Assembly: GCA_017469945.1 (NCBI GenBank)
Contig: JAFUFI010000015.1
Location: forward strand, 51,427 to 115,426
DNA from: Lachnospiraceae bacterium
GTDB taxonomy: Bacteria; Bacillota; Clostridia; Lachnospirales; Lachnospiraceae
Direction: 5' to 3'
Length of the DNA: 64,000 nucleotides
In this document: positions 18,626-58,837 of the stretch, one piece after another
How the letters are laid out: every line of letters starts with the position of its first letter
Numbering within the stretch: position 1 is the first letter of the stretch
Notes under the pieces: generated by a model
Seen by the model: the letters and a program-made list of their open reading frames with translations, nothing else
Told to the model about the DNA's origin: nothing
Databases searched by the model: none
Program-made: the position numbers and the translations under genes

Positions 18626-19441
18626 ATGAAATCAAGTATCAAATCGCTGGCTGAGGAGACTAAGATCCTTATGCGCAGCATCCCATCACTCGTCGTAGCG
18701 GCTTATATCGTCGCGCTCGTCACCATGAATCTGCTAGCAAACAAGCTTGTACCTATAAATACAGAATATCTGCTTTTAGATTGCGGATTTTTCGTATCCT
18801 GGGCAGTATTTCTTACAATGGATGTGGTAACAAGGCATTTTGGACCTCGTGCCGCAACTATTCTTTCTGTTGTAGGACTTATCTGCAATCTTTTTGTTGC
18901 GCTTTTACTGTTCTTTTGCGGTAAGTTACCCGGAAGCTGGGGAGAGGCCTATATACCCGGCTTTGAGTCAGTCATCAACACCGCTCTTGATAATACCATA
19001 AGCGGCAACTGGTTTGTCGTATTCGGAAGCAGCCTTGCTTTCCTAAGTTCCGCTGTCGTAAACAATTTCCTGAATTTCTTTATCGGAAGAAAGGTTGAGG
19101 GAAATGTTGTGGGAATGAAGGCCGGATCTTTAGCTTCCACCAAGAAGAAAAACTTCGGAACCTTTGCACTTAGAAGCTATGTTTCTACATTTATCGGCCA
19201 GTTCGTTGATAACCTTGTTTTTGCGCTCGTTGTAAGTCATACGCTTTTCGGGCTTTCACTCTTGCAGTGCATGATCTGTGCCGTAACGGGTGCGGCAGCG
19301 GAGCTTTTGTTCGAGGTTGTGTTCTCACCCATCGGATATAATGTAACTAAGGCTTGGGAGCGCGACGGAGTAGGAAGCGAGTATTTCCGGTTCGTATCTG
19401 AGGCATATTCAAAGAAAAGCGAAGAGCTCAAAGCAGTTTAA
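18626..19441 (+). CDS. VUT (Vut_1/YhhQ, DUF165) family queuosine-precursor transporter
   Basis: MNLLANK, CGFFVSWAVFLTMDVVTRHFGPRAA, RSYVSTFIGQFVDNLVF; multi-TM; preceded by a preQ1 riboswitch. Confidence 0.88.
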   Translation: MKSSIKSLAEETKILMRSIPSLVVAAYIVALVTMNLLANKLVPINTEYLLLDCGFFVSWAVFLTMDVVTRHFGPRAATILSVVGLICNLFVALLLFFCGKLPGSWGEAYIPGFESVINTALDNTISGNWFVVFGSSLAFLSSAVVNNFLNFFIGRKVEGNVVGMKAGSLASTKKKNFGTFALRSYVSTFIGQFVDNLVFALVVSHTLFGLSLLQCMICAVTGAAAELLFEVVFSPIGYNVTKAWERDGVGSEYFRFVSEAYSKKSEELKAV

Positions 19442-19477
19442 AGAACATACGCTTATGGATAAGTGATGTGTAACTAA

Positions 19478-19640
19478 GTGACGGCTGCGCGCTACGCAGC
19501 TATGTATCCGGCACCGCCTCGCGGCTATAGGGTCCTCGTGGCAGCGGTCCTAAGCTCGTACTGCGCATGGCTTGTACTCGCTAAGTACCGGCCTCGGACA
19601 TATTGCCGGATATCATAGCTTGCGCATCACGCAGCCTGAC
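19478..19640 (-). repeat. Structured repeat, copy 1 (resembles the Clostridiales-1 RNA motif family)
   Basis: Reverse complement of 19510-19607 = GGCAATATGTCCGAGGCC...CGAGGACCCTATAGCC-GCGA-GGCGGTGCC, enclosed by its own long outer stem (GGCTGCG...AGCTATG-TATCCGGCA / TGCCGGATA-CATAGCT...CGCAGCC). The family name is from memory and unverified. Confidence 0.7.
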
Positions 19641-19835
19641 TGGGATAGTTCTATTTTATATAATTAATGGCCTGCTCAAGCCGTTATTATAAATGTGCAG
19701 AATGCAGGTTATTAGATAGTTCATCAGTGCCTACAGACATTTAACCAACAATATGACAACACGACAAGAAATGCAAAAACCGATATAAAAACGAATCGGA
19801 AATGCGATTTAGATAGATATATGAGAATTTGGTGG

Positions 19836-19992
19836 TGCGGACGGTGATTGGTGGGTGCGTCTTGGGCAATGTGTCCGAGGCCGGTACTTAGCGAAGGCGA
19901 GCGATAGCGATGCCTGAGCTTAGAACCGCTGCAACGAGGACGTCATAGCCGGGAGGCGGTGCCAAAGATGCACCAAACAATCACCGCCCGCA
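19836..19992 (+). repeat. Structured repeat, copy 2 (inverted relative to copy 1)
   Basis: Core 19865-19963 GGCAATGTGTCCGAGGCC...CGAGGACGTCATAGCC-GGGA-GGCGGTGCC; outer stem TGCGG-ACGGTGATTG...GTGCGTCTTGG / CCAA-AGATGCACC...CAATCACCG-CCCGCA. Confidence 0.75.
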
Positions 19993-20016
19993 ATTACATA
20001 TTTACAGGAGCGTATC

Positions 20017-20667
20017 ATGCACATTTTAGTTACGGGCTCGAGCCGGGGAATCGGCAAAGCAATAGCTGAGAAGTTTCTTAAAGAAGGACATAAGGTATCG
20101 GGATTTGACGTAAATCCCGGAACGATAGATAACGTTTTCTACACACATTACATCGTAGATATTCGCAAAAAGAGCATGTATCCGAAGCTTGATACGGTAG
20201 ACATCCTTATCAATAACGCCGGAGTTCAGGGAGCGGACGATGTTAATGTCAATCTGCTTGGAACGATCGATATTACGGAAGAGTACGGAATACATCCGGA
20301 GATCAAGTCCGTGCTTATGATCGGATCGGCCTGTGTACATACGGGCTCGGAATTCCCCGTGTATGCCGCTAGTAAAGGCGGAGTAGTTACTTACGCTAAA
20401 AATGTAGCTTTAAGGATTGCGCCTTACGGAGCCACATGCAACAGTTTGGACTTCGGTGGCGTTATTACAGAGCTTAACGCACCGGTTATAGATGATTGTG
20501 AGCTTTGGAACAAGATCATGGATCTTACTCCGCTTAAGAGATGGATGAGCGTGGAAGAGACCGCAGATTGGGCATATTTTATGACTGTGACTAACAGATT
20601 CTGTACAGGTCAGAATATCCTTATCGACGGTTTAGAGGCAGGAAACGCAACATTCGTCTGGAAGTAG
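20017..20667 (+). CDS. Short-chain dehydrogenase/reductase (classical SDR)
   Basis: TGSSRGIG, INNAG, catalytic S (IGS) and YAASK, FCTGQNILIDG. Confidence 0.93.
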   Translation: MHILVTGSSRGIGKAIAEKFLKEGHKVSGFDVNPGTIDNVFYTHYIVDIRKKSMYPKLDTVDILINNAGVQGADDVNVNLLGTIDITEEYGIHPEIKSVLMIGSACVHTGSEFPVYAASKGGVVTYAKNVALRIAPYGATCNSLDFGGVITELNAPVIDDCELWNKIMDLTPLKRWMSVEETADWAYFMTVTNRFCTGQNILIDGLEAGNATFVWK

Positions 20668-46733: not shown

Positions 46734-48368
<1,635 letters not shown>

Positions 48369-48381
48369 AACAGGGAATCAT

Positions 48382-48427
48382 AAGAGCCGCTTTCTTCCTG
48401 CTTGCAGGAAAGAAAGCGGCTCTTTTT
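48382..48427 (+). terminator. Intrinsic terminator of groESL
   Basis: AAGAGCCGCTTTCTTCCTGC-TT-GCAGGAAAGAAAGCGGCTCTT followed by TTT. Confidence 0.9.
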
Positions 48428-48436
48428 GATGCCCGC

Positions 48437-48604
48437 ACATGTATAAGCATAAAAGCCAATTGCGTAGCAATGGCGATATGCGCATACATGTAGGATTTCG
48501 AGAGTTGCGAAGCAACGTAGAAATCCGCTGTTTTAGTAAGCAACAGCGATTTGCGAATACTTTTTGGCAGATTGCGAGAGTTGCGAAGCAAATTAAGAAA
48601 CTCT
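48437..48604. repeat. Cluster of irregular hairpins capped by GCGNAGC mini-hairpins (REP-like)
   Basis: ATTGC-GTA-GCAAT; GAGAGTTGC-GAA-GCAA twice (48500, 48577); enclosing stems ACATGTAT/ATACATGT and GGATTTC/GAAATCC. Confidence 0.6.
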
Positions 48605-58597: not shown

Positions 58598-58615
58598 TTA
58601 AAATTATTAATTACA

Positions 58616-58767
58616 GCGGGAGAGCGTAGTGAGCTGTTCTGAGAGCAATGTGTCCGAGGCCAGCACTTGTTGAGTGCGAGTACTACGAAGCACGAAACTA
58701 GTACTGCTGCTTCGAGGACCCATAGCTGAGAAGCGATGCTCGAAGAACACTCACGAGCTAGGCCCGC
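58616..58767 (+). repeat. Structured repeat, copy 3 (same family as 19478-19640 and 19836-19992)
   Basis: Core AGCAATGTGTCCGAGGCC...CGAGGACCCATAGCT-GAGA-AGCGATGCT; outer stem GCGGG...GTGAG-TGTTC / GAACA-CTCAC...CCCGC. Confidence 0.75.
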
Positions 58768-58837
58768 GTCACTAGGACAATTTATTTTAGGATACATAAA
58801 AACTGAATATATTTAACGGAGGAAAAAAGAAAAAACT

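Follow-up and report, generated by a model that had tools for sequence, protein, structure and literature searches.

The question raised by this locus is what two copies of a highly structured element are doing between two adjacent protein-coding genes. In the stretch of Lachnospiraceae bacterium DNA that we analyzed (assembly GCA_017469945.1, contig JAFUFI010000015.1, positions 51,427 to 115,426; 64,000 nucleotides, hereafter the window), a gene read as a VUT transporter and one read as an SDR are separated by a head-to-head doublet around an AT-rich spacer. The initial annotation saw here a three-way-junction element under selection for structure rather than sequence, either as divergently transcribed noncoding RNAs or as a nonautonomous mobile unit inserted between the two genes, and likened it to REPINs and to the Clostridiales-1 RNA. 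By sequence comparison, we identify the doublet as two members of an undescribed, multicopy intergenic element family of Lachnospiraceae. We put the probability at about 0.6 that the element is a nonautonomous mobile element similar to miniature inverted-repeat transposable elements (MITEs), with one strand folding into a conserved structure. The window belongs to a 2.6-Mb draft genome (G000, in which the window is C22:51427-115426) and contains three copies, as the initial annotation had also indicated, the third of them solitary:

19472-19640, predicted functional strand -: copy 1 (subfamily A); minimum free energy -84.3 kcal/mol, z -5.6; 121.4 bits with our covariance model R1
19472-19484, 19483-19509 (approximate), 19510-19606 and 19607-19638: tail CCGUCACUUAGUU, 3' arm of the closing stem P1, core and P1 5' arm of copy 1
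19641-19835: spacer between the two 5' ends; 195 nt, 33.8% G+C
19836-19993, predicted functional strand +: copy 2 (subfamily A); minimum free energy -85.2 kcal/mol, z -6.28; 110.7 bits with R1
19836-19865, 19866-19963 and 19964-19993: P1 5' arm, core and P1 3' arm of copy 2
58613-58778, strand +: copy 3 (subfamily A), a solitary copy lying between rimP and nusA in the same orientation as both; z -4.25; core at 58645-58740, tail GCGUCACUAGGAC
18626-19441, strand +: left flanking gene (the VUT transporter of the initial annotation); stop codon about 30 nt from the tail of copy 1
20017-20667, strand +: right flanking gene (the SDR of the initial annotation); start codon 24 nt past P1 of copy 2

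Copies 1 and 2 are inverted, with their 5' ends facing each other across the 195-bp spacer, so the arrangement first described is borne out. A repeat search returned two pairs of inverted arms, 19510-19557 with 19916-19963 (48 nt, 88% complementary) and 19567-19607 with 19865-19905 (41 nt, 85% complementary), and both correspond to a shared core of about 97 nt that is 82% identical between the two copies. Each copy closes on itself outside the core, 19481-19510 pairing with 19607-19638 in copy 1 and 19836-19868 with 19960-19992 (33 nt) in copy 2. The P1 5' arm of copy 1 starts with CAGG at 19635-19638; copy 2 is without the canonical tail GUCACUAGGA, and its 3' end directly abuts the SDR ribosome-binding site. 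The copies are 59 to 60% G+C, against 33.8% for the spacer and 44% for the window, and in a shuffle test of folding none of 200 shuffles matched any of the three window copies.

In each window copy a P1 stem of 25 to 32 bp, differing in sequence between copies, closes a conserved three-way junction bearing a long arm (P2), with a U.U mismatch and tandem G.A pairs, and a short GNRA hairpin (P3). The clade consensus reads, 5' to 3', AT-rich flank; CAG; P1 5' arm of about 30 nt; J1/2; P2; J2/3; P3; P1 3' arm; and tail CGUNACUAGGA. In the P1 5' arm the base (GCGG-GAGA) and a UAUG box are recurrent and the middle is variable. The P2 consensus is GUCC-GA-GGC-CGG-Y-ACU-U-AGC-GA-[variable hairpin]-GA-GCU-U-AGU-A-CCG-CU-GCC-AC-GA-GGAC, in which the module ACUUAGC-GA...GA-GCUUAGU carries the conserved U.U mismatch and tandem G.A pairs, and that of P3 is GCC-GNRA-GGC. 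P3 is GCC-GCGA-GGC in copy 1, GCC-GGGA-GGC in copy 2 and GCU-GAGA-AGC in copy 3, and our alignment agrees with the loops and compensatory pairs first reported. Two other early observations need qualification. GUCC/GGAC is invariant in the three window copies and throughout subfamily A, but is missing from subfamily B and from more distant members; and the outer stems, described as unrelated and self-closing, are indeed self-closing, but the stem base and a UAUG/CAUA box are shared among paralogues, so that the stems have some sequence in common across the family.

The fold is supported by covariation in a MAFFT alignment of 45 copies that was fitted to no structure. Compensatory changes are present in 15 of the 20 consensus pairs, 98.1% of cells are paired (25 to 39% when the partners are slid), and the number of cells with double changes (142, versus 36.8 in shuffles) was reached by none of 500 shuffles. 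The U.U and G.A positions stay mismatched while adjoining pairs covary, a pattern that favors a folded single strand over a palindrome in double-stranded DNA. The long variable P1, the junction and the GNRA hairpin are all retained in members from distant genera, and the element has what is looked for in a structured RNA, a secondary structure supported by covariation in an alignment independent of the model, with the same fold in distant genera.

One strand appears to have been selected to fold, because the small hairpin has a GNRA loop (GAGA, GCGA, GGGA, GCAA or GAAA) on one strand and UCNC on the other, because the GNRA strand is the more stable in 20 of 24 genomic copies (sums of -1781 and -1574 kcal/mol), and because G.U mismatches exceed A.C. 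For the last comparison, copies were folded with G.U pairs forbidden and isolated 1x1 mismatches were then classified; those in P1 comprise 46 G.U and 16 A.C (p = 1.8e-4). In the window, copy 1 has - as its predicted folding strand, and copies 2 and 3 have +. Base-pair covariation shows a conserved structure and the mismatch bias points to one strand, and the covariation counts and P1 bias both support the proposal of selection on structure rather than sequence.

The family is large and widely distributed. A search with nhmmer found about 24 copies in G000, every one intergenic, over 21 loci, with 11 copies co-oriented with the neighboring genes, 8 opposed and 5 mixed. With R1, the element is found in 31 of 33 congeneric species at 1 to 28 copies each (0 to 28 across all congeners), and in 133 of 400 Lachnospiraceae genera represented by one genome per genus (E<=1e-5); one genome each from 24 other families of that order gave no match. 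Members are noncoding and range from about 165 to 280 bp, with 170 typical. A cmscan against Rfam 15 gave no match for the doublet (19300-20200) at E<=10, nor for 20 loci with diverse members at E<=5, and no description of the element was found in full-text literature. There was also no match pointing to a phage or plasmid origin, and apart from the conserved stem base, the variable P1 arms have no match elsewhere in the genome, on which ground a guide or spacer role for P1 was rejected.

In low-copy genomes the element is flanked by unrelated housekeeping genes with no conserved gene neighborhood, and the tail side of the element lies within about 0 to 20 nt of the neighboring open reading frame. 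One G000 copy outside the window (C8:33166-33261) sits in a 150-nt gap between genes that by their sequences appear thiolase-like and crotonase-like (thl-crt), antisense to both and with about 50 nt to spare on each side. About 1.3 kb from another copy, and unrelated to the element, is a sub-threshold match to a T-box leader (L068 2913-3074, G029:C6; 47.7 bits, E = 2e-7).

Comparison of orthologous loci indicates how the doublet arrived. VUT and SDR are adjacent throughout the genus, and in nine species the gap between them is 0 to 92 nt and free of the element, which fills the gap only in G000, G008 (SDR 99% identical) and G004 (97%). The doublet is an insertion between VUT and SDR, as had been suggested, and the comparison of genomes shows the divergent pair and its spacer to have been gained at this site in the common ancestor of the three species. 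The G000 and G008 doublets are about 96 to 97% identical, and in copy 2 changes are clustered at one place of the 3' arm, beside a 44-nt indel, a combination that looks like a single event. In G004 (L044, G004:C97) the doublet has collapsed into a single chimeric hairpin with the loss of about 340 nt. Copy 1 passes into copy 2 inside the near-palindromic ACUUAG/CUUAGU helix, and this junction (19586 to 19925) recurs as a joint in metagenome run X5; the four sequencing runs examined display element presence, strain variants and the collapsed form.

The 195-nt spacer sequence occurs at this locus only, in G000 and its closest relative G008, and no donor was found for it elsewhere. It contains a 25-codon ATG frame, MACSSRYYKCAECRLLDSSSVPTDI, at 19668-19745 (+) without a ribosome-binding site; in G008 this frame has nonsynonymous changes and has lost its stop codon, and it is probably not a gene. 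More generally, neither this nor the short frames within the element are conserved between G000 and G008, and they lack ribosome-binding sites.

Gain and loss are not confined to the doublet. When the joined flanks of all 21 G000 loci were compared with five congeners, several loci proved empty, with clean empty sites for C16:8475 in G004 and G031 and for C15:75795 in G011; both the genome-wide copies and the empty sites that the initial annotation called for are therefore present, and none of the outcomes that it named as refuting its reading has come about. Deletion remnants, consisting of the last 25 nt or the tail alone, are found for C17:74325 in G011 and for the rimP-nusA locus in G008. 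Copy 3 itself has an orthologue in G004, only the tail remnant in G008, and none in G031, G007 or G011. One gain brought in about 90 nt of 5' flank along with the element. These comparisons show copies to be gained and lost at orthologous loci, with copy number varying from 0 to 28 among congeners.

Decay products are also scattered through the genomes. Solo GTNACTAGGA tails and stem-base remnants with no core occur in G000 at C19:56790, C2:40751, C22:15637 (outside the window) and C21:1020, and these tails appear to be scars of deleted elements; a collapsed partner lies beside C19:56958. The word GTCACTAG occurs 10 times in G000, mostly at or beside elements, against about 75 expected (about 7-fold underrepresented). 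In G015 (L135/L137), an 85-nt conserved stretch past the element tail contains GCGGAGAC twice and ends in a second tail, CCGUCACUAAG, and looks like a tandem, internally collapsed second element.

Signs of mobility also come from a genome of another genus, G035 (g3; 100% complete, 21 copies). Seven near-identical copies there extend over about 215 bp with sharp edges, their 5' end (GACAATTGCGAAACTC) and 3' end (GAGTTTCGCAATTGTC) forming a perfect 16-bp terminal inverted repeat, and six of the seven have TA on both sides, a possible target duplication. The terminal-repeat word occurs 65 times in G035, versus 0 to 1 for the control, and the words are paired at spacings of 194, 264 and 67 nt, giving three size classes: the standard element (194), an internal collapse (67), and a larger form (264; L154, G035:C1:329200-329560; 278 bp) in which the P2 apex has two extra nested ACUUAGCGA...GAGCUUAGU hairpin modules. 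The repetition of this hairpin suggests a repeatable binding module. Such terminal repeats with TA flanks characterize IS630/Tc1-type elements and their MITEs, RUP and Correia among them. The element is small, noncoding and multicopy, with insertion polymorphism between relatives, as MITEs are.

Copies also exchange sequence. Copy 3 of G000 and its G004 orthologue are otherwise identical and differ by a wholesale swap of the apical P2 module; the P2 apical module is likewise swapped between C17:30718 and its orthologue, and the relative's apical hairpin recurs at another of its loci. These mosaic orthologues show paralogues to be exchanging segments by gene conversion. Five subfamily-A copies from two species are 100% identical over 135 nt (the core and proximal P1), and their distal P1 differs by compensated changes. 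Either the core is homogenized among paralogues or the distal stem changes fast with compensation, and template switching at quasi-palindromes may provide a nonselective route to such changes.

A plausible account of these observations is that the elements would spread as DNA through an enzyme acting in trans, and that the folding molecule would be RNA, the strand being transcribed either by read-through or from the AT-rich flank at its own 5' end. The transcribed strand would form an extremely stable RNA, in which P1 could serve as a sequence-free double-stranded clamp or processing stalk and the junction head as a binding platform for a protein or another RNA.

Several observations weigh against a transcribed, MITE-like element of this kind. 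First, copies in the genus of the window have asymmetric ends (CAG... / ...CGUNAC-UA), and terminal repeats are not demonstrable; within the G000 clade, 20 of 44 copies have TA after GUNAC and only 5 of 49 have it before CAG, and the two clean empty sites are without target duplication. Second, no mobilizer was found. The IS630-type domain DDE_3 (PF13358) has no match in G035 or G000 and a single one, in G015, among 13 other genomes, although draft genomes may lose insertion sequences and other transposase families were unscreened. The genes beside solo terminal repeats are housekeeping genes, and no transposase gene bounded by the same ends was found. Only 11 of 33 congeners (12 of 34 with G000) have Y1_Tnp (PF01797), which does not track the element. 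Third, no sign of transcription was found in the one possible RNA run (X14), which is flat over the genes and the spacer alike. A+T makes up about 80% of the 20 nt 5' of the element, and -10-like hexamers are enriched there, but equally on both strands and with no positional peak, and we reject them as promoter evidence for being strand-symmetric and unpositioned; the spacer has one promoter-like match, not above chance. There is no U-tract after P1 on the favored strand, and hence no terminator, and a terminator scan gave nothing above chance. Several copies, some antisense (thl-crt) and some sense (rimP-nusA), are fitted closely between operon genes, with little promoter room. Finally, template switching at a quasi-palindrome could yield compensation in P1 without selection at the RNA level.

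A bolder possibility, which we raise tentatively and think rather unlikely, is that the three-way-junction head is functional cargo rather than a passenger, and would represent a new RNA class widespread in Lachnospiraceae, aiding mobilization of its own element or acting as a domesticated multicopy regulatory or scaffold RNA. In mobilization it might recruit or guide a host or trans-acting enzyme, or self-process from read-through transcripts at the P1 stalk. A functional head would explain why the interior is conserved in about one-third of sampled genera while the ends have been exchanged from clade to clade, and also the divergence of the pairs. A dimer is suggested by the two-fold symmetry of the CUUAG/CUUAG helix, with its U.U mismatch.

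Comparable in standing, and in our judgment doubtful, is the explanation that the copies are a family of host small RNA genes (sibling small RNAs) with promoters of their own, the divergent pairs sharing a bidirectional promoter, the copies arising and disappearing by ordinary duplication and loss, and the mobile features being incidental. The orientation of pairs is one observation in its favor. Pairs are divergent (5' to 5') at 13 or more independent loci: G000 contributes three, its congeners twelve (which flank synteny assigns to at least seven further loci) and other genera three more, so that the head-to-head arrangement first described is both real and recurrent. The spacers between the 5' ends measure 14 to 195 nt, and some pairs combine subfamilies A and B. 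Among the pairs found, none is convergent, and the exception is a triple (L123) that reads -,-,+ and so contains one tandem pair; 13 of 13 divergent pairs under random orientation has a probability of about 1.5e-8. This near-universal divergence is the strongest hint, and only a hint, that direction matters, as it might for two terminator-less transcription units, and the early suggestion of divergently transcribed noncoding RNAs would fit both the orientation rule and the strand asymmetry. Small RNA genes would also account for one strand being favored regardless of flanking-gene orientation, for a core kept across 133 genera with ends that differ between clades, for the AT-rich 5' flank and the 90 nt of it gained along with one copy, and for doublets that persist in low-copy species. 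Such genes are nonetheless difficult to reconcile with the lack of a positioned -10/-35 motif and of terminators, with 5'-5' spacers down to 14 to 23 nt in length, or with copies in operon gaps without promoter room. The terminal repeats, TA flanks and burst of near-identical copies in G035, the frequent decay remnants and the absence of a conserved gene neighborhood are likewise not what a family of host genes would leave.

It is quite improbable that the element is a cis-acting mRNA element of the adjacent genes, such as a riboswitch, leader, intrinsic terminator or stabilizer in the 3' untranslated region. The closeness of the tail to the neighboring reading frame, the copies inside operons, and a CCUGUUU that follows the big hairpin on the opposite strand of some copies would be in keeping with such a role. 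However, the flanking genes are unrelated housekeeping genes and stand in both orientations relative to the element, the favored strand is independent of gene direction, neither strand has a consistent U-tract, and copies are gained and lost at orthologous loci.

More improbable still is the REPIN-like explanation, by which the fold is the single-stranded DNA substrate of a Y1 (HUH) transposase (RAYT or IS200/IS605 TnpA) and movement is of the inverted doublet as one unit. Inverted doublets do recur, strand asymmetry could equally reflect a single-stranded DNA intermediate, and DNA, too, can form stable GNA/GNRA-type loops and sheared G.A pairs. The single Y1_Tnp match in G000 is weak (E = 2.7e-14; a 322-amino-acid open frame at C8:124753-125085, outside the window) and is not beside any element copy. 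Y1_Tnp is in any case absent from most carrier genomes, including the high-copy or complete G033 (26 copies, 99% complete) and G035, as well as G004 and G022. Only 3 of the 21 G000 loci are doublets, most copies being single 170-nt junctions, and the P1 stems of the doublet are unrelated, so each copy folds on itself. The TA-flanked terminal repeats in G035 point to cut-and-paste DNA transposition rather than to Y1 chemistry, which leaves no target duplication. There is also no orientation bias relative to gene direction (11 co-oriented and 8 opposed copies, as a proxy for replication direction). The analogy with REPINs and RAYTs drawn in the initial annotation is therefore not supported.

That the element belongs to, or is a close variant of, the Clostridiales-1 RNA family (RF01699) is next to impossible: the likeness is superficial (Clostridia, function unknown, hairpins in an outer stem), the cmscan searches returned no such match for the doublet or for the diverse members, and a genuine full-length copy elsewhere in the window (48365-48536, +; 113.6 bits against a threshold of 48 bits, E = 4.6e-25) has three hairpins inside its P1 and no sequence similarity to the element. 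This true copy is probably of the family that the initial annotation had in mind. Other candidates were set aside on anatomy or content: integron attC sites, whose centers are variable and ends conserved and which lie in arrays; invertons, whose inverted repeats are conserved; type I toxin-antitoxin systems, for want of a peptide frame; and retrons, omega-RNAs and bridge RNAs, for want of an adjacent partner-protein gene.

We therefore return to a MITE-like mobile element, one strand of which folds, as the best single description of the family. Lachnospiraceae are a dominant family of gut and rumen, and if confirmed, the element would represent a sizeable annotation gap, with a strongly covarying multihelix fold in one-third of sampled genera, at up to about 30 copies per genome, and no Rfam entry. 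A covariance model would let annotators mask or label hundreds of unexplained intergenic hairpin loci. The usual logic of MITEs is reversed here, the interior being conserved and the ends variable, and the family offers a test case for whether small mobile elements can carry, or be driven by, functional RNA; for the effect of insertions on operons (at thl-crt and rimP-nusA, beside nusG, and on the SDR ribosome-binding site); and for the evolution of long hairpins by gene conversion or compensated change.

Among known systems, the element is closest in kind to MITEs of the RUP and Correia type and to structured repeats such as ERIC and bcr. As with REP sequences and REPINs, it is an intergenic repeat partly in inverted doublets, but its units are about 165 to 215 nt with a junction, rather than short palindromes of about 20 to 40 nt, and are mostly single, self-folding and without RAYT association. 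As with Clostridiales-1, it is Clostridia-associated, about 170 nt long, of unknown function and without a fixed gene neighborhood, and has an outer closing stem; this stem holds two arms in a three-way junction instead of three hairpins, and the conserved nucleotides differ throughout. With ERIC/IRU of enterobacteria and bcr1-bcr18 of the Bacillus cereus group, it shares the character of dispersed intergenic repeats of 100 to 170 nt whose structure is kept by compensatory changes and whose copy number varies between close relatives; there is no sequence or model similarity to them, and the element differs in its multihelix junction, its closing stem with a variable middle, and its restriction to Lachnospiraceae. 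RUP of Streptococcus pneumoniae and Correia (CREE/NEMIS) of Neisseria are, like the element, small (about 100 to 280 bp), noncoding, multicopy and intergenic, inserted beside or between housekeeping genes, with terminal inverted repeats and TA at both ends (here in the G035 subfamily), a very stable hairpin when transcribed, and internally deleted size classes. Correia elements are not known to have a cognate transposase in the host genome, and none was found for the element in the genomes searched. What sets the element apart from RUP and Correia is that in the window's own genus it lacks demonstrable terminal repeats or target duplication, that it favors one strand with pairs almost always divergent, and that its interior (the junction, the GNRA hairpin and the U.U/G.A module) is conserved in about one-third of sampled genera, while its ends vary by clade.

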